DNA of 64,000 bases, taken from assembly GCF_003334405.1 (NCBI RefSeq), contig NZ_QOWM01000004.1; one strand, given 5' to 3'. Of this stretch, positions 1 through 58,835 are shown in pieces. Each line of letters begins with the position of its first letter. Position 1 is the first letter of the stretch. Both the position numbers and the translations under genes were made by a program. Under the pieces are notes generated by a model that was not told the origin of the DNA, made no database searches, and saw nothing but the letters and a program-made list of their open reading frames with translations. This DNA is from Escherichia coli. GTDB taxonomy: Bacteria > Pseudomonadota > Gammaproteobacteria > Enterobacterales > Enterobacteriaceae.

Positions 1-1512
1 TTTGCTCTGACCGCGCTGTATCACTTTTTATTTGTACCCCTTACCCTGGGGCTGATTTTTTTGCTGGCTATTATGGAAACCATTTACGTGGTCACCGGCA
101 AAACAATCTACCGCGATATGACGCGCTTCTGGGGTAAGCTCTTCGGTATCAATTTTGCTCTTGGCGTGGCTACCGGCCTGACCATGGAGTTTCAGTTTGG
201 TACTAACTGGTCATTCTATTCCAACTATGTGGGCGATATTTTTGGCGCACCGCTGGCGATGGAAGCATTAATGGCCTTCTTCCTCGAATCCACCTTTGTC
301 GGGCTGTTCTTCTTCGGCTGGCAACGGCTGAATAAATACCAGCACCTGCTGGTGACGTGGCTGGTGGCGTTCGGTTCAAATCTCTCTGCGTTGTGGATAT
401 TGAATGCCAACGGTTGGATGCAATACCCGACCGGTGCGCATTTTGATATCGACACCCTGCGTATGGAGATGACCAGCTTCAGCGAGCTGGTCTTTAATCC
501 GGTCAGCCAGGTGAAATTTGTGCACACCGTAATGGCGGGCTACGTGACCGGGGCCATGTTTATTATGGCGATCAGCGCCTGGTATTTACTGCGCGGACGG
601 GAGCGCGATGTCGCATTACGCTCGTTTGCCATCGGTTCCGTCTTCGGTACTCTGGCGATTATCGGTACCCTGCAACTCGGAGACAGTTCTGCGTATGAAG
701 TCGCGCAAGTACAACCGGTAAAACTGGCGGCGATGGAAGGGGAGTGGCAAACGGAACCTGCACCTGCACCGTTCCATGTGGTTGCCTGGCCGGAACAGGA
801 TCAAGAGCGTAACGCCTTTGCCCTCAAAATTCCCGCGCTGCTAGGGATCCTCGCCACTCACTCATTAGATAAACCCGTGCCGGGTCTGAAGAATTTGATG
901 GCTGAAACCTACCCACGCTTGCAACGCGGACGTATGGCCTGGCTGTTAATGCAGGAAATATCGCAAGGCAATCGTGAGCCGCATGTGTTGCAGGCATTCC
1001 GGGGACTGGAAGGTGACCTGGGCTACGGCATGTTGCTCTCCCGCTATGCGCCGGATATGAATCATGTCACAGCCGCACAGTACCAGGCGGCGATGCGTGG
1101 CGCGATACCTCAGGTTGCGCCGGTATTCTGGAGTTTCCGCATCATGGTGGGCTGTGGTTCCCTGCTGCTACTGGTGATGCTGATTGCGCTTGTCCAGACG
1201 CTGCGTGGCAAAATCGACCAGCATCGCTGGGTGCTGAAAATGGCGCTCTGGAGTTTGCCGTTGCCGTGGATTGCGATTGAAGCCGGGTGGTTTATGACCG
1301 AGTTTGGTCGTCAGCCGTGGGCGATACAGGACATCTTACCGACATACTCCGCGCACTCCGCTTTAACCACAGGACAACTGGCTTTCTCACTGATCATGAT
1401 CGTAGGGCTTTACACCCTGTTCTTAATCGCCGAAGTCTACCTGATGCAGAAATATGCCCGTCTGGGGCCGAGCGCGATGCAGAGTGAACAACCGACGCAG
1501 CAACAGGGGTAA
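1..1512 (+). CDS. appC: Cytochrome bd-II ubiquinol oxidase subunit I, 5'-truncated by the window edge
   Basis: Frame 1 is open from position 1 ([34 protein letters not shown]...) and matches the AppC/CydA-family N-terminal region; stop TAA at 1510-1512; track ORF 61..1512 is the same frame. Confidence 0.93.
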
Positions 1513-1523
1513 AGGAGAAAATC

Positions 1524-2660
1524 ATGTTTGATTATGAAACATTGCGCTTCATCTGGTGGCTGCTGATTGGCGTGATCCTGGTGGTCTTTATGATCTCCGA
1601 CGGATTTGACATGGGGATCGGCTGTCTGCTGCCGCTGGTGGCGCGTAATGATGATGAACGCCGGATAGTGATAAACAGCGTTGGTGCACACTGGGAAGGC
1701 AACCAGGTCTGGTTGATCCTCGCTGGTGGGGCATTATTTGCCGCCTGGCCCAGAGTGTATGCAGCGGCGTTTTCCGGCTTTTATGTGGCGATGATCCTGG
1801 TGCTGTGCTCACTGTTCTTCCGCCCGCTGGCCTTTGATTATCGCGGAAAAATCGCCGATGCACGCTGGCGTAAAATGTGGGACGCCGGTCTGGTCATCGG
1901 CAGTCTGGTGCCGCCGGTAGTCTTCGGTATCGCCTTCGGCAACTTGTTGCTCGGCGTGCCGTTTGCCTTCACACCGCAATTACGCGTGGAGTATCTCGGC
2001 AGCTTCTGGCAACTGCTGACGCCATTCCCTTTATTGTGCGGATTGCTCAGCCTTGGGATGGTGATTTTGCAAGGTGGCGTCTGGTTACAACTGAAAACTG
2101 TTGGTGTGATTCATCTGCGTTCACAGCTGGCGACCAAACGCGCTGCACTGTTGGTGATGCTGTGCTTTTTGCTGGCGGGTTACTGGCTGTGGGTCGGTAT
2201 TGATGGCTTTGTACTGCTCGCCCAGGATGCTAACGGTCCTTCCAATCCGTTAATGAAACTGGTGGCAGTGCTACCTGGTGCCTGGATGAATAATTTTGTC
2301 GAGTCGCCCGTTTTGTGGATCTTCCCGCTGCTGGGATTCTTCTGCCCATTGCTGACGGTGATGGCGATTTATCGTGGTCGCCCGGGTTGGGGATTTTTGA
2401 TGGCATCATTGATGCAATTTGGCGTGATTTTCACGGCAGGCATCACGCTGTTCCCCTTTGTCATGCCGTCAAGCGTGAGTCCGATCTCCAGCCTGACGTT
2501 GTGGGACAGTACTTCCAGTCAGCTGACGCTGAGCATTATGTTGGTAATCGTGCTGATATTTTTGCCCATTGTGTTGCTCTACACTCTCTGGAGCTACTAC
2601 AAAATGTGGGGGCGCATGACAACAGAAACTCTCCGCCGTAACGAAAACGAGTTGTACTAA
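1524..2660 (+). CDS. appB: Cytochrome bd-II ubiquinol oxidase subunit II
   Basis: Track ORF of 378 aa ([17 protein letters not shown]...), 11 nt after appC stop; polytopic membrane protein, length matches AppB. Confidence 0.95.
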
Positions 2661-2672
2661 GGAGCAGAAACA

Positions 2673-2765
2673 ATGTGGTATTTACTTTGGTTCGTCGGCA
2701 TTTTGTTGATGTGTTCGCTCTCCACCCTTGTGTTGGTATGGCTGGACCCGCGTCTGAAAAGTTAA
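2673..2765 (+). CDS. appX: Small membrane subunit of cytochrome bd-II oxidase (30 aa)
   Basis: ATG at 2673 preceded by GGAG; encodes MWYLLWFVGILLMCSLSTLVLVWLDPRLKS, stop TAA 2763-2765; below the ORF-track size cutoff. Confidence 0.8.
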   Translation: MWYLLWFVGILLMCSLSTLVLVWLDPRLKS

Positions 2766-2770
2766 CGAAC

Positions 2771-2806
2771 GTAGGCCTGATGCGGCGCATTAGCATCGCA
2801 TCAGGC
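2771..2806. repeat. REP-like palindrome (gcctgatgcg...cgcatcaggc), probable transcript-end structure after appCBX
   Basis: Inverted repeat read directly; resembles the REP family seen elsewhere in the window. Confidence 0.5.
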
Positions 2807-2844
2807 AATCAATAATGTCAGATATGAAAAGCGGAAACATATCG

Positions 2845-4143
2845 ATGAAAGCGATCTTAATCCCATTTTTATCTCTTCTGATTCCGTTAACCCCGCAATC
2901 TGCATTCGCTCAGAGTGAGCCGGAGCTGAAGCTGGAAAGTGTGGTGATTGTCAGTCGTCATGGTGTGCGTGCTCCAACCAAGGCCACGCAACTGATGCAG
3001 GATGTCACCCCAGACGCATGGCCAACCTGGCCGGTAAAACTGGGTTGGCTGACACCGCGCGGTGGTGAGCTAATCGCCTATCTCGGACATTACCAACGCC
3101 AGCGTCTGGTAGCCGACGGATTGCTGGCGAAAAAGGGCTGCCCGCAGTCTGGTCAGGTCGCGATTATTGCTGATGTCGACGAGCGTACCCGTAAAACAGG
3201 CGAAGCCTTCGCCGCCGGGCTGGCACCTGACTGTGCAATAACCGTACATACCCAGGCAGATACGTCCAGTCCCGATCCGTTATTTAATCCTCTAAAAACT
3301 GGCGTTTGCCAACTGGATAACGCGAACGTGACTGACGCGATCCTCAGCAGGGCAGGAGGGTCAATTGCTGACTTTACCGGGCATCGGCAAACGGCGTTTC
3401 GCGAACTGGAACGGGTGCTTAATTTTCCGCAATCAAACTTGTGCCTTAAACGTGAGAAACAGGACGAAAGCTGTTCATTAACGCAGGCATTACCATCGGA
3501 ACTCAAGGTGAGCGCCGACAATGTCTCATTAACCGGTGCGGTAAGCCTCGCATCAATGCTGACGGAGATATTTCTCCTGCAACAAGCACAGGGAATGCCG
3601 GAGCCGGGGTGGGGAAGGATCACCGATTCACACCAGTGGAACACCTTGCTAAGTTTGCATAACGCGCAATTTTATTTGCTACAACGCACGCCAGAGGTTG
3701 CCCGCAGCCGCGCCACCCCGTTATTAGATTTGATCAAGACAGCGTTGACGCCCCATCCACCGCAAAAACAGGCGTATGGTGTGACATTACCCACTTCAGT
3801 GCTGTTTATCGCCGGACACGATACTAATCTGGCAAATCTCGGCGGCGCACTGGAGCTCAACTGGACGCTTCCCGGTCAGCCGGATAACACGCCGCCAGGT
3901 GGTGAACTGGTGTTTGAACGCTGGCGTCGGCTAAGCGATAACAGCCAGTGGATTCAGGTTTCGCTGGTCTTCCAGACTTTACAGCAGATGCGTGATAAAA
4001 CGCCGCTGTCATTAAATACGCCGCCCGGAGAGGTGAAACTGACCCTGGCAGGATGTGAAGAGCGAAATGCGCAGGGCATGTGTTCGTTGGCAGGTTTTAC
4101 GCAAATCGTGAATGAAGCACGCATACCGGCGTGCAGTTTGTAA
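2845..4143 (+). CDS. appA: Periplasmic pH 2.5 acid phosphatase / phytase (histidine acid phosphatase)
   Basis: Track ORF 2815..4143; start moved to internal ATG giving MKAILIPFLSLLIPLTPQSAFA signal peptide and 432 aa; RHGVRAP histidine-phosphatase motif present. Confidence 0.92.
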   Translation: MKAILIPFLSLLIPLTPQSAFAQSEPELKLESVVIVSRHGVRAPTKATQLMQDVTPDAWPTWPVKLGWLTPRGGELIAYLGHYQRQRLVADGLLAKKGCPQSGQVAIIADVDERTRKTGEAFAAGLAPDCAITVHTQADTSSPDPLFNPLKTGVCQLDNANVTDAILSRAGGSIADFTGHRQTAFRELERVLNFPQSNLCLKREKQDESCSLTQALPSELKVSADNVSLTGAVSLASMLTEIFLLQQAQGMPEPGWGRITDSHQWNTLLSLHNAQFYLLQRTPEVARSRATPLLDLIKTALTPHPPQKQAYGVTLPTSVLFIAGHDTNLANLGGALELNWTLPGQPDNTPPGGELVFERWRRLSDNSQWIQVSLVFQTLQQMRDKTPLSLNTPPGEVKLTLAGCEERNAQGMCSLAGFTQIVNEARIPACSL

Positions 4144-53975: not shown

Positions 53976-54327
53976 TTTTCAAAATAAATTAGGATTAAAA
54001 TAATTAAATCAGTAAATTCCGATGCATGATTTCGGATTTTTCGAAAGTCCTGATGAAAGGCTGCGCTACGGCACTCACGGATTTAATTGTTATTCCTAAT
54101 GTATCTATGAATTAATGTTTTATAAGGATTTTCTATAACCATTTATAAGTATTTTCAAGCCTGGCTTGTTGCAAACAATGTATAAAGCACTTAGGCAATA
54201 ATAATTACATTCAGCAACTATCATCATCGGTATTGTTTGTGGGCGGAATTTCATATTGACAACAGTACAGTTCTTATATCTATTAATAATAGAAAGGGAT
54301 CTACAACCTACAGATTGGTGTAGCTTT

Positions 54328-55686
54328 ATGGAAAAAGACTATTTGAGAATTAGTAGTACTGTATTAGTGAGCTTATTGTTTGGGCTTGCTTTGGTTTTGG
54401 TGAATAGTTGGTTTAATCAGCCAGGCGTTGAGGAAGTTGTTCCACGATCAACCTATCTGATGGTAATGATTGCTTTATTTTTTATCGATACTGTTGCATT
54501 TATTTTTATGCAGTTGTATTTCATTTATGACCGTAGGCAATTTTCAAACTGTGTACTTAGTTTGGCTTTTCTGAGTTGTTTGATTTACTTTGTTATAACC
54601 GTCATTATCATTCAGCAAATTATTGAGGAGCGTTTGACAAGCAGTGTTGTCCAAAATGACATTGCAATCTATTATTTGTTTCGTCAGATGAGTTTGTGCA
54701 TATTAATATTTCTGGCATTGGTGAATAAAGTTAGTGAAAACACAAAACAGCGCAATTTATTTTCCAAAAAAATGACTTTGTGCATAAGTTTGTTTTTTGT
54801 TTTTGGGGGGCCGATAGTTGCTCACATACTTTCTAGTCATTATGAGAGCTACAATTTACACATTGCCGAGTTAACCAATGAAAATGGTCAGGTGGTTTGG
54901 AAAGCCTCATATGTTACCATAATGATTTTCATGTGGTTAACCTTGCTTTCGGTTAATCTATACTTTAATGGTTTACGCTATGATATCTGGAATGGAGTGA
55001 CGGTGATTGCTTTTTGTGCCGTACTGTACAATATCTCTCTGTTATTTATGAGCAGGTATAGCGTGTCCACTTGGTATATTAGTCGCACTATTGAAGTAGT
55101 CAGTAAGTTAACCGTTATGGTAATATTTATGTGCCATATATTCAGTGCGCTACGAGTAACAAAGAACATTGCACATCGCGATCCCTTAACCAATATATTT
55201 AACAGAAATTATTTTTTTAATGAACTGACAGTTCAATCAGCATCAGCCCAAAAAACGCCTTATTGCGTCATGATTATGGATATCGACCACTTCAAAAAAG
55301 TCAACGACACCTGGGGGCATCCGGTTGGCGATCAGGTGATAAAAACAGTGGTGAATATCATTGGGAAAAGCATACGACCAGATGACCTTTTAGCGCGCGT
55401 CGGCGGCGAAGAGTTTGGCGTCTTGCTGACGGACATCGATACTGAACGTGCGAAAGCTTTAGCGGAAAGGATTCGGGAAAATGTTGAGCGTTTAACTGGC
55501 GATAATCCTGAATACGCTATACCACAAAAAGTGACGATTAGTATTGGCGCTGTTGTGACTCAGGAAAATGCGTTAAACCCAAATGAGATCTATCGACTGG
55601 CTGATAACGCACTTTACGAGGCGAAAGAGACCGGGCGTAATAAGGTGGTTGTGAGGGATGTGGTGAATTTTTGTGAGTCACCATAA
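54328..55686 (+). CDS. dgcT: Membrane-anchored diguanylate cyclase (GGDEF domain)
   Basis: Track ORF 54256..55686; ATG at 54328 gives 452 aa MEKDYLRISSTVLVSLLFGLAL; GGEEF active-site motif (RVGGEEFGVLL). Confidence 0.9.
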   Translation: MEKDYLRISSTVLVSLLFGLALVLVNSWFNQPGVEEVVPRSTYLMVMIALFFIDTVAFIFMQLYFIYDRRQFSNCVLSLAFLSCLIYFVITVIIIQQIIEERLTSSVVQNDIAIYYLFRQMSLCILIFLALVNKVSENTKQRNLFSKKMTLCISLFFVFGGPIVAHILSSHYESYNLHIAELTNENGQVVWKASYVTIMIFMWLTLLSVNLYFNGLRYDIWNGVTVIAFCAVLYNISLLFMSRYSVSTWYISRTIEVVSKLTVMVIFMCHIFSALRVTKNIAHRDPLTNIFNRNYFFNELTVQSASAQKTPYCVMIMDIDHFKKVNDTWGHPVGDQVIKTVVNIIGKSIRPDDLLARVGGEEFGVLLTDIDTERAKALAERIRENVERLTGDNPEYAIPQKVTISIGAVVTQENALNPNEIYRLADNALYEAKETGRNKVVVRDVVNFCESP

Positions 55687-55726
55687 AGCGGCATTTTGAT
55701 CCTACCCACGTAATATGGACACAGGC

Positions 55727-56593
55727 CTAAGCGAGGTTCTTGTTTTCAAATTGTTCCGGACTGAGGCCGCCACACCAACTGTGCCGCCGCCACCGATTGT
55801 AATCACATTCGATATAATTAAACACCGTTGCCCGCATTATTTCCCGGCTGATAAAGTGTTCTCCATGGATACATTCCACTTTCAGCGAATGAAAGAAGCT
55901 TTCCACGCAGGCATTATCGTAGCAGCAACCTTTTGCGCTCATACTTCCACGCAGATTATGCCGCTTCAGTTGCGCCTGATAATCTGCTGAACAGTACTGG
56001 CCTCCACGGTCCGTGTGAACGATAACGTTCCGGGGCCTCTTACGCCGCCACAGCGCCATCTGCAGGGCATCGCAGGCCAGTTGCGCCGTCATGCGTGGCG
56101 ACATTGACCAGCCAATAACGGCACGTGACCACAGGTCAATGACCACTGCCAGATACAGCCAGCCTTCATCTGTACGTAAGTACGTGATGTCTCCTGCCCA
56201 CTTCTGGTTCGGGCCACTGGCGTAAAAATCCTGCTCCAACAGATTTTCTGACACAGGCAGGCCGTGTGCGCGGTAGCTGACCGGGCTGAACTTCCGGGAG
56301 GCCTTTGCCCTCAGTCCCTGACGGCGCAGGCTTGCCGCCACGGTTTTTACGTTAAAGGGGTAACCCTGAGCACGCAGTTCATCCGTCAGGCGTGGGGCAC
56401 CGTAACGCTGTTTTGACCGGGTAAAAGCCGCGAGGACAACGCTGTCGCAGTGTTGGCGGAACTGCTGACGCGTGCTTATCCTTGTCCGCCGCTGACACCA
56501 CGTATACCAGCCGCTGCGGGCCACCCGGAGCACGCGGCACATTGCTTTGATGCTGAACTCAGCCTGATGTTTTTCAATAAAGACATACTTCAT
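55727..56593 (-). CDS. insF: IS3 transposase OrfB (DDE integrase domain)
   Basis: Track ORF of 288 aa, [30 protein letters not shown]. Confidence 0.93.
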
Positions 56594-56889
56594 TTCAGGC
56601 GCTTCGCGAAGTATGTCGCGGCCTTTTGGAGGATAGCCAGCTCTTCATCCCGTTCTGCCAGCTGGCGTTTGAGACGTGCAATCTCGGTAGACATCTCCAG
56701 TTCACGTTCAGAAGACGTCTGCTGATTTTGCTGTTTACTGCGCCAGTTGTAGAGTTGTGATTCATACAGGCTGAGTTCACGGGCTGCGGCAGTAACACCG
56801 ATGCGTTCAGCAAGCTTCAGGGCTTCACTGCGAAATTCAGGCGAATGCTGTTTACGGGGTTTTTTACTGGTTGATACTGTTTTTGTCAT
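56590..56889 (-). CDS. insE: IS3 transposase OrfA (HTH)
   Basis: Track ORF 56590..56898; ATG at 56889 gives 99 aa [32 protein letters not shown]; 4-nt overlap with orfB typical of programmed -1 frameshifting. Confidence 0.93.
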
Positions 56890-56954
56890 GTGAGTCACCT
56901 CTGACTGAGAGTTTACTCACTTAGCCGCGTGTCCACTATTGCTGGGTAAGATCA

Positions 56955-57298
56955 GTGCCTGGCACACGCGTTTGATGGAAGACGGCGTTCAGGCAATGCG
57001 CGATTATCTTGCCGGACTGGATATCGCTTCGCCAGAGCATCAGGTTCTGATGAACGTAACAGCAAAAAGCGAGGTCGCTCCGTCAATTATCAAAGAAAAT
57101 CTCTCATTACACTTAACTCATACGGTGAAATGGACTGAATCTCTCGATACATTTCTGAATATGCCAACCCCGGTAGCTTTCCTTGAAATAAGTAATAAGC
57201 CCTATTTGGGGAATATGTTAAATGATTTTGCTGGCGTGGATCAGCAACGAGTTATGCATTGTCGTAAAGCATTTAGTGATGCAAAGGTATTCAAATGA
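56955..57298 (+). pseudogene. ymdE: C-terminal fragment of an acyltransferase-like gene (FabD-like), 5' end replaced by IS3
   Basis: Track ORF 56939..57298 begins at a TTG inside the IS3 inverted repeat; the frame continues straight out of the IS end with no upstream N-terminal part after dgcT; stop overlaps ycdU start (ATGA). Confidence 0.65.
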
Positions 57299-58281
57299 TT
57301 CCTGATTATTTAACTTTTATTCGCTTTCAGGATAAACGAAATCTGATATACATTTATGCTATTGGACTTATTCTGATAGGCTTTTATTGGAAGAATGCAG
57401 GGTTTACTTTTCCATCAGAGGATATTGGTGTAGTTAGTGGGATTCTGGCTCTGGTGCTGTATAATTTTATTTTTGATCTCAAGGCGTACTGGGCTTATAA
57501 ATGCGTCACGAAGAATATCGATTTTTCGTGGTTTAAGAAAAAGCAGAACCACAAAATAGAATTATTTCTTACACAACCTCTGGTGGCAGGATTTCTGTCG
57601 TTAATCATGTTGAGTGCAATGAGTTGGGGGCTATACCAGCTTCTACCCTCGTTATATGCGCTGTTCCTGATTTCGTTACTTGGGCCGTTGGTCATCTTTC
57701 TGCTGTTTCGGATGATCCGCACCAGTTATGTCAAGCAGGTCGCTATTTCAGTAGCGAAAAAAGTAAAATATAAAAGTCTGACTCGCTATGTGCTGCTTTC
57801 GGTGTGCATCTCAACGGTTGTTAACCTGCTTACTATCAGCCCGTTGCGTAACAGTGATTCTTTTGTGACAGAGGGGCAGTGGTTAACGTTTAAATCGATA
57901 ATTGCATTGCTCATTCTTTGTGGCGTAGTGTTGGCGATTAATCTGTTTTTTCTGCGCTTCTCCAAGCGGTACGCTTTTCTGGGCAGGCTTTTTTTGCAGG
58001 AAATCGATCTGTTTTTCTCCAGTGAAAATGCGTTGTCGACCTTTTTTGCCAAGCCGCTTTGGCTTCGGTTATTCATATTGCTGGTTATTGAAGTGATGTG
58101 GATTACGCTGGTGTCGGTATTGGCAACGCTTGTAGAATGGCGGATTTGGTTTGAAGCCTATTTTTTACTCTGCTATGTACCGTGCTTAATTTACTATTTT
58201 TTCTATTGTCGATTCCTCTGGCATAACGATTTTATGATGGCATGTGACATGTATTTCCGTTGGGGGCATTTTAATAAGTGA
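57295..58281 (+). CDS. ycdU: Polytopic inner-membrane protein of unknown function
   Basis: Track ORF of 328 aa, [32 protein letters not shown]; multiple hydrophobic segments; AT-rich coding DNA. Confidence 0.9.
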
Positions 58282-58432
58282 GGAAGTGATAGGAAGTGAC
58301 CAGATAATACATATATGTTCTGTACTCTCTTGCGCATTTTGATTGTTGACTGAGTAACCAGACAGTTGATGTGCACGATTTCCCCTCGCCCTAACAGACG
58401 TGGGCGGGGGCACCCGGTGTGTGCAATATACG

Positions 58433-58460
58433 AAAAAAAAGCCCGTACTTTCGTACGAGC
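58433..58460 (-). terminator. Intrinsic terminator copy in repeat unit 1 (minus-strand GCUCGUAC-GAAA-GUACGGGC followed by U8)
   Basis: Hairpin 58441-58460 and A8 on plus strand 58433-58440, read from sequence. Confidence 0.6.
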
Positions 58461-58613
58461 TCTTCTTTAAATATGGCGGTGAGGGGGGGATTGACTCGCT
58501 TCGCTCGCCCTGCGGGCAGCCCGCTCACTGCGTTCACGGTCTGTCCAACTGGCTGTCGCCAGTTGTCGAACCCCGGTCGGGGCTTCTCATCCCCCCGGTG
58601 TGTGCAATATACG

Positions 58614-58641
58614 AAAAAAAAGCCCGTACTTTCGTACGAGC
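58614..58641 (-). terminator. Intrinsic terminator copy in repeat unit 2
   Basis: Identical hairpin plus U8, 181 bp from the unit-1 copy. Confidence 0.6.
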
Positions 58642-58794
58642 TCTTCTTTAAATATGGCGGTGAGGGGGGGATTGACTCGCTTCGCTCGCCCTGCGGGCAG
58701 CCCGCTCACTGCGTTCACGGTCTGTCCAACTGGCTGTCGCCAGTTGTCGAACCCCGGTCGGGGCTTCTCATCCCCCCGGTGTGTGCAATATACG

Positions 58795-58822
58795 AAAAAA
58801 AAGCCCGTACTTTCGTACGAGC
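58795..58822 (-). terminator. Intrinsic terminator of serX (hairpin plus U8, 13 nt after the tRNA CCA end)
   Basis: Hairpin 58803-58822 and A8 on plus strand 58795-58802; GNRA (GAAA) loop. Confidence 0.75.
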
Positions 58823-58835
58823 TCTTCTTTAAATA

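Follow-up and report, generated by a model that had tools for sequence, protein, structure and literature searches.

The window analysed here, a 64,000-nucleotide (nt) stretch of an Escherichia coli genome (contig NZ_QOWM01000004.1), carries the gene order dgcT–IS3–ymdE′–ycdU–serX–ghrA, which is the arrangement of E. coli K-12. This report concerns two of these genes: ymdE′, a truncated malonyl-CoA:acyl carrier protein (ACP) transacylase gene, and ycdU, which encodes an inner-membrane protein of an orphan family. The pair is very probably the 3′ stump (the last 1.3 kilobases (kb)) of an operon of horizontal origin, which E. coli O157:H7 still has in full and which in K-12 has left behind an orphaned and probably functionless remnant. 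Four observations carry this account, namely synteny with the intact operon, the point at which ymdE is truncated, the loss of catalytic residues from its product and a series of nested deletion states. In the course of events that we propose, the insertion sequence (IS) IS3 would have inserted 10 nt after the dgcT stop codon and then made rightward adjacent deletions, of which those in the K-12 lineage would have taken everything up to codon 200 of ymdE, leaving ycdU as an intact but orphaned open reading frame (ORF) that is poorly expressed and probably without function. The K-12 pair is itself already annotated and ordinary, and most of the account has been given before, by that annotation and by Goldstone et al. 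2016 (PMC4951805); real potential for discovery lies only in the parent operon and the orphan YcdU family.

A truncated transacylase gene

The ymdE stump lies within an ORF of 119 amino acids (aa) that found no Pfam match, even at E ≤ 10. The 113-aa ymdE fragment itself matches the NCBIfam fabD model TIGR00128 (E = 2.3e-9) over model positions 197–264 of 290, and differs at two residues from residues 201–313 of the full-length O157:H7 protein. That 313-aa protein, annotated as 'ACP S-malonyltransferase', matches the same model over residues 9–268, which is the whole acyltransferase fold (E = 1.8e-52), and PF00698 is recorded for its orthologues. A first-pass annotation, made from the letters of the window alone, had taken the fragment for the C-terminal part of a malonyl-CoA:ACP transacylase-like enzyme, and both alignments bear this out. 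The ymdE frame also coincides with the MG1655 pseudogene annotation at 1095505–1095846 (PMC5635171).

With 178.7 bits, full-length YmdE scores below the curated fabD equivalog cut-off of 260.9 bits, so it is a dedicated paralogue rather than the housekeeping FabD. Its closest solved structures are the trans-acyltransferase (trans-AT) transacylases PksC (5dz6) and DisD (3rgi), at about 1e-32, with E. coli FabD at 1e-22. Aligned to PksC, the protein contains the motifs FAGQG (Gln15), GHSVGE (Ser97) and SGAWHT (His203) together with Arg122, exactly 25 residues past Ser97; this full motif set gives it the look of a true malonyl-specific loader. What K-12 retains starts at Ala201 and includes His203, and the GQG motif, Ser97 and Arg122 fall within the lost first 200 codons. 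Because Ser97 and Arg122 are deleted, K-12 ymdE′ is a catalytically dead pseudogene and not a member enzyme.

The parent operon in O-island 47

In O157:H7 strain F1273, full-length ymdE and ycdU close a block of genes that all run in one direction. At its head stand genes for the two-partner secretion (TPS) proteins TpsA (filamentous-haemagglutinin-like) and TpsB, followed by those for AcpS, a short-chain dehydrogenase/reductase (SDR) ketoreductase, a FabZ-family dehydratase, an ACP and a GcvT-like protein of the aminomethyltransferase family. Then come a fused double ketosynthase (KS–KS, 852 aa), a KS of 407 aa, a soluble protein (hyp317, 317 aa), an ATP-binding cassette (ABC) ATPase, a secreted protein (hyp218, 218 aa) and an FtsX/MacB-type permease (436 aa), and the block ends with a LolA-like 'TP_0789-like' protein, hyp462 (462 aa), the 313-aa transacylase and YcdU. 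From TpsB to YcdU all intergenic gaps are of 73 nt or less, and three of the 16 junctions of the operon are ATGA overlaps, so the one between ymdE and ycdU is not unusual. The two genes are the natural 3′ end of an approximately 15-gene operon for lipid synthesis and export.

The export half of the operon is recognizable from its domains. The permease carries PF12704 and PF02687, and its hydropathy fits four transmembrane segments around a large periplasmic loop; with the 235-aa ATPase (PF00005) it makes up an exporter of type VII (MacB/LolCDE-like). Signal peptides are present on hyp218, the LolA-like protein and hyp462, the last of which is modelled as a porin-like 18-strand outer-membrane barrel. 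An invariant Cys23 had made hyp462 a candidate lipoprotein, which we rejected on the barrel model and on the residue before the cysteine, which is D, H or E and not the G, A or S of a lipobox. Besides the permease, YcdU is the sole polytopic membrane protein of the operon.

In O157:H7 the 31.7-kb O-island 47 (OI-47) begins just past dgcT, and the operon is its right-hand half. The island has been delimited as z1528–z1556 by subtraction against K-12 (PMC8565820), and the published boundary consequently falls inside the operon and leaves out ymdE and ycdU. A literature search by gene-content terms and by EDL933 and Sakai locus tags found no paper describing the parent cluster.

At the other end of the operon, a TPS-domain exoprotein gene (PF05860), usually accompanied by tpsB, lies directly upstream of acpS on the same strand in three very different hosts: O157:H7 (locus L003, 18233–23753), Enterobacter (L027, 1–4138) and a distant relative (L028, 5329–7869). 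The gap ahead of acpS is 15 nt in O157. A joint action of the lipid pathway and the secreted TPS protein is possible, for instance by way of lipidation or of a lipid cofactor.

Conservation of the pair and its junction

A word-indexed search returned 114 YcdU relatives, all from Enterobacterales; when 1.84 billion cluster representatives were searched exhaustively with a profile, 71 were found, including distant members of 335–398 aa. Genomic context was drawn from Klebsiella, Pantoea, Enterobacter, Mixta and several metagenomic contigs, and from eight genomes reached through a five-sequence YcdU alignment (four Serratia species, Edaphovirga, Entomohabitans, Cedecea and one enterobacterium). 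Mapping all cluster proteins with tblastn gave the same gene order everywhere. The gene immediately upstream of the YcdU-family gene encodes a PF00698 transacylase in 16 of 17 distinct loci, which come from about a dozen genera; at the single exception a gene of the 462-aa type takes this place. The downstream neighbours differ by genus, which ties YcdU to the cluster and not to a chromosomal site, and among the relatives and loci examined the family was not seen outside the cluster. The first-pass annotation had proposed that the pair may once have been part of an acyl-transfer or membrane-modification module, an idea to be abandoned if ycdU homologues never co-occurred with acyltransferases or if ymdE had no similarity to them. 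The similarity is there, the homologues do co-occur with acyltransferases, and one conserved cluster, resembling a fatty acid synthase (FAS) or polyketide synthase (PKS) joined to an exporter, surrounds the homologues. The reverse scenario, in which the O157 cluster was inserted into a pre-existing ymdE, runs counter to the presence of a complete 313-aa protein in many genera.

The cluster occurs in variants. A second subtype (L011 and L019–L026, from Serratia, Edaphovirga, Cedecea and Entomohabitans) has an extra SDR gene between the permease and LolA-like genes and an extra gene of about 245 aa, and its YcdU-family protein is about 20% identical to that of E. coli. In a third variant (L018/L028) the LolA-like and barrel genes are absent. 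In some strains with the full cluster, ymdE, ycdU or the permease gene is interrupted by frameshifts or internal stops (L013, 2403–3337; L016, 1682–2992 and 6126–7113), and the operon may be decaying by point mutation in some lineages, unless these are assembly errors.

At the junction of the pair, positions 57290–57299 of the window read ttcaaATGAt, and the ATG of ycdU (57295–57297) overlaps the TGA of ymdE′ (57296–57298), as the first-pass annotation had stated with every coordinate correct. We take this ATG as the true start of ycdU because 34 homologues share an invariant M-I-P-D-Y N-terminus. In other genera the junction is a short gap instead of an overlap (10 nt where measured, about 5–35 nt by gene calls), often with a Shine–Dalgarno-like sequence. 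The two genes are thus co-directional, with an overlap or very short gap conserved across taxa, as expected of an operon, and the ATGA overlap is an inherited operon junction. It is exceedingly improbable that adjacency and overlap are coincidental and that ymdE and ycdU were never functionally linked. Gene overlaps of 4 nt are common in bacterial genomes, and this one is not conserved beyond E. coli, but the synteny effectively refutes coincidence: the genes stay adjacent and co-directional in distant genera, across short gaps, while the downstream context is always different. Translational coupling of the two genes is suggested by the 4-nt overlap; in K-12, where ymdE′ is without its native start and promoter, coupling becomes moot, as there may be nothing to couple to.

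Nested deletions beside IS3

The element that occupies the place of the deleted operon genes has the properties by which IS3 is recognized, namely a length of about 1.26 kb, terminal inverted repeats starting from TGATC, and orfA and orfB joined by a programmed frameshift. It measures 1258 bp, its terminal inverted repeats were read, and it holds ORFs of 102 and 288 aa; RefSeq labels it 'IS3 family transposase, programmed frameshift'. Its last base precedes position 56955, the first that is not IS3. It is flanked by two different triplets, TTT and GTG, which means that a target-site duplication is lacking.

Comparison with strain 94-3024 gives two of the deletion states. The left IS3 junction, 10 nt past the dgcT stop, is identical in K-12 and 94-3024, and it is there that O157 continues into OI-47. 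On the right the two differ, with 184 bp more of ymdE left in 94-3024 than in K-12. Because the flanking triplets differ in both strains, the two flanks cannot both belong to the original insertion site. A further state is found in strain HS-01 (L029, 3728–5046), in which IS3 is bordered by a truncated pgaC to one side and by what remains of ycdU, its last 46 nt, to the other; here IS3 has eroded the locus in both directions, and pgaA, pgaB, dgcT, ymdE′ and nearly all of ycdU are gone. In a laboratory-evolved MG1655 clone, an 'IS3-mediated' deletion of 26.5 kb runs from this IS3 through ymdE and ycdU to pyrC (PMC8611074). The fixed left end, the shifting right junctions, HS-01 and the laboratory clone together are the signature of repeated IS-adjacent deletions, and the loss that the first-pass annotation had associated with IS3 is now supported by the common left junction, the different right junctions and the missing target-site duplication.

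We surveyed 5426 complete E. coli genomes for these states. ycdU is present in 2668 of them, and the K-12-type junction with its short stump (about 1479 genomes) is more frequent than the long-stump junction (716); intact downstream cluster genes are found in 389.

Expression and possible function in K-12

A scan for sigma-70-like promoters between IS3 and ycdU found no site, and an outward promoter derived from IS3, considered as a source of ycdU transcription, was set aside on the same scan. In published RNA sequencing data, ycdU has normalised counts of 53–64, compared with 37,076 for the neighbouring phoH (PMC10294691).

Three facts weigh against a functionless remnant. The ycdU ORF is intact in about 2200 stump-bearing genomes; its transcript responds to deletion of rpoS and cya, being lower in both mutants (PMC4512719); and Goldstone et al. 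proposed ymdE–ycdU as part of the mastitis-specific core genome, taking its lack of mutational attrition as a sign of function, with both genes present in 98.5% of mastitis isolates and in about 80% of phylogroup A (PMC4951805). On such grounds ycdU, perhaps with the ymdE′ stump, could keep an independent function under selection in phylogroups A and B1, for example in udder colonisation or biofilm, and be a minimal working unit. We consider this improbable. The ymdE′ stump, which has lost its catalytic serine and arginine, is just as undecayed: it differs from the O157 allele by just three synonymous and two non-synonymous changes, and ycdU differs between K-12 and 94-3024 by two of each. Lack of decay therefore reflects recency, not function. 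Synonymous divergence among stump alleles is only about 0.9%, too little for a test of selection, and pairwise dN/dS among six ycdU alleles and the ymdE stump draws on 2–15 differences per pair, too few to be informative. Also unfavourable to a residual function are the absence of YcdU-family genes outside the cluster among the relatives and loci examined, the removal of ycdU by IS3 deletions both in nature (HS-01) and in the laboratory (PMC8611074), the very low expression with no promoter-like site upstream, and the dispute over the mastitis pathotype in a later study (bioRxiv 10.1101/096479). A recent, orphaned stump remains the explanation that we prefer.

The YcdU protein

The ycdU product is 100% identical to NCBI 'protein YcdU [Escherichia coli]'. 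An AlphaFold2 model built with 34 homologues is confident, having a predicted local distance difference test (pLDDT) score of 88 and a predicted template modelling (pTM) score of 0.84, and hydropathy combined with the positive-inside rule gives eight transmembrane helices and places both termini on the cytoplasmic side; lysines and arginines number 23 in the proposed cytoplasmic loops and 2 in the periplasmic ones. No match was found in Pfam, NCBIfam, PADLOC, PDB sequences, PDB folds or annotated clusters of the AlphaFold database (AFDB), and a Foldseek search of AFDB50 returned uncharacterised relatives only. A 25-residue Pfam hit to Ycf12 (E = 0.001) was judged spurious, and the PADLOC search, for a role in a defence system, found nothing. 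Profile searches and structure prediction thus agree with the first-pass annotation, which had described a 328-aa multi-pass membrane protein without a recognised motif.

We tentatively propose that YcdU, which we infer to be a dedicated inner-membrane component of the pathway in the intact operon, serves as a hand-over protein or flippase, a possible role rather than a probable one. YcdU would take up the completed lipid, acyl or polyketide, on the cytoplasmic side and present or flip it to the periplasmic leaflet, from which the MacB/Lol-type transporter would then draw it out and supply it to the LolA-like carrier and the outer-membrane barrel. Type VII ABC transporters such as LolCDE and MacB act on substrates that are already on the periplasmic side. 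Synthesis in the cytoplasm and a transporter that works from the periplasmic side would together call for a step that moves the lipid, and YcdU is the only other polytopic protein to which it could fall. The proposal has weaknesses: it is an argument by elimination, the fold of YcdU shows no similarity to a known flippase or transporter, and the cytoplasmic His310, Asp318 and Cys317, invariant in one subfamily, would suit catalysis.

Those residues bear on the main alternative role, in which YcdU is a membrane-bound acyltransferase or chain-releasing enzyme that collects the completed acyl chain from the cluster ACP on the cytoplasmic side and joins it to a membrane acceptor. In the E. coli/Enterobacter/Klebsiella (type 1) subfamily, R10, Q12, R142, H310, C317, D318 and R322 are invariant and all predicted to be cytoplasmic; the cluster has no recognisable thioesterase or off-loading acyltransferase; and YcdU follows an ACP-loading transacylase in nearly all loci. 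We nevertheless regard this role as unlikely. Serratia-type and more distant members do not conserve His310, Asp318, Cys317, Arg10 or Arg142; among them only M1, P3, N34, W66, Y68, P95, P131, N177, P183, F190 and G230 are kept, at positions distributed across both faces and the core of the membrane. This family-wide pattern speaks against a classical His/Asp or Cys acyltransferase and in favour of binding or translocation as the role. Nor does YcdU have an HX4D, MBOAT-type or other acyltransferase signature, or a sequence or structural match in the databases above, and the soluble hyp317 could be the off-loading enzyme instead. We therefore prefer hand-over or flipping to acyl transfer, with scaffold, regulatory or other roles making up the remainder.

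Features and boundaries of the locus

Table 1. Features of the ymdE′–ycdU locus, in window coordinates
Feature	Position	Strand	Evidence and remarks
dgcT (ycdT), diguanylate cyclase	54328..55686	+	ORF; annotated dgcT in syntenic loci L002 and L003; left-hand neighbour, stop codon ends 10 nt ahead of IS3
IS3 (IS3D, insE/insF), 1258 bp	55697..56954	-	Ends TGATCCTACCCACG...CTGGGTAAGATCA read; orfA/orfB ORFs; annotated as IS3 transposase in L002
ymdE′ pseudogene, codons 201–313 and stop of 313-aa malonyl-CoA:ACP transacylase	56957..57298	+	NCBIfam fabD match and alignment to O157
AAAGG, putative weak Shine–Dalgarno-like element	57283..57287	+	7 nt before the ycdU ATG, within ymdE′ coding sequence
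ATGA start/stop overlap of ymdE′ and ycdU	57295..57298	+	Read directly; same junction in the O157 allele
ycdU, 328 aa, orphan-family inner-membrane protein, terminal gene of ancestral operon	57295..58281	+	ORF, homologues, AlphaFold2 model
Two RtT-like repeat units	58474..58791	-	Rfam RF00391 at 58474–58610 and 58655–58791; downstream of serX
serX, tRNA-Ser(GGA)	58836..58923	-	ARAGORN, Rfam

The RtT-like units lie outside the operon and mark its right-hand boundary. They sit in a perfect 181-bp tandem repeat of 2.4 copies (58413–58854, Tandem Repeats Finder), immediately 3′ of serX on the minus strand, and every unit carries a TGGCGGTGAGGGGG core, which is the direct repeat of serX-integrated islands. 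In other E. coli strains examined ycdU and serX are about 190 nt apart, which makes two repeat units extra in K-12. In O157:H7, serX is the integration site of O-island 48 (PMC3064760).

The stump region has a G+C content of 39–44%, lower than the surroundings to its right, which fits a horizontally acquired origin. dgcT and the region upstream of it (54000–55000) are likewise very AT-rich (34% G+C), which suggests that the entire pga–dgcT–OI-47 neighbourhood is of foreign origin.

Implications and comparison with known systems

This account explains why a y-gene stands beside a pseudogene in K-12, where ycdU is not to be read as a stand-alone gene. It also weakens the argument that absence of mutational attrition means function for ymdE–ycdU as mastitis determinants, because the dead stump is no less well preserved and too little time has passed for the alleles to decay. 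YcdU is better seen as a hallmark of a conserved, uncharacterised operon for lipid biosynthesis and export linked to a secreted TPS protein, and studies of OI-47, or of envelope lipids in Enterobacter, Klebsiella and Serratia, should count ymdE and ycdU in the unit. If the proposed hand-over role is correct, K-12 ycdU would offer a ready-made intact allele for studying that step.

Two components of the locus have close counterparts. Full-length YmdE shares with FabD and the trans-AT transacylases the GQG oxyanion motif, the GHSxG serine, the malonyl-specificity arginine and the catalytic histidine, whereas K-12 ymdE′, with the last 113 residues only, cannot be active. The deletions are a textbook case of the IS3-mediated adjacent kind, with one IS end fixed, the other junction moving progressively and no target-site duplication, and we see no difference from that pattern.

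The parent cluster occurs here and there across Enterobacterales and extends to beta- and deltaproteobacteria; its closest described analogues are the type II FAS-like clusters for aryl polyenes and xanthomonadin. These share with it a discrete ACP, KS/KS pairs, a FabZ/ApeI-like dehydratase, a ketoreductase and a LolA-like protein of the periplasm by which lipid reaches the outer membrane, and they too are island-borne in E. coli. Among the annotated and Pfam-scanned cluster genes of O157, Enterobacter and a distant relative we found no ammonia lyase, no aryl-starter gene, no 4-hydroxybenzoate synthase, no adenylating enzyme and no MMPL/RND exporter; with neither aryl-starter nor MMPL genes, the cluster does not belong to the aryl-polyene class. 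Its GcvT-like protein, MacB/FtsX ABC transporter, 18-strand barrel, TPS exoprotein and YcdU set it apart from that class.

The export route resembles LolCDE–LolA–LolB and MacB, a resemblance and no more, in its ABC ATPase, its FtsX-fold permease with a periplasmic MacB_PCD domain and its LolA-like carrier (PF17131). It differs from them in having a porin-like 18-strand barrel as outer-membrane partner in place of LolB or TolC, and from Lol in its cargo, presumably a small lipid and not a lipoprotein. It is quite possible, if somewhat short of probable, that the parent system is an undescribed one, in which a TPS exoprotein is joined by a type II FAS/PKS-like synthase of its own, with the conserved GcvT-like enzyme, and by a Lol/MacB-like route to a barrel. 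YcdU would then be a protein of new fold whose task, without counterpart among known families, is to hand the lipid to a type VII ABC extractor.

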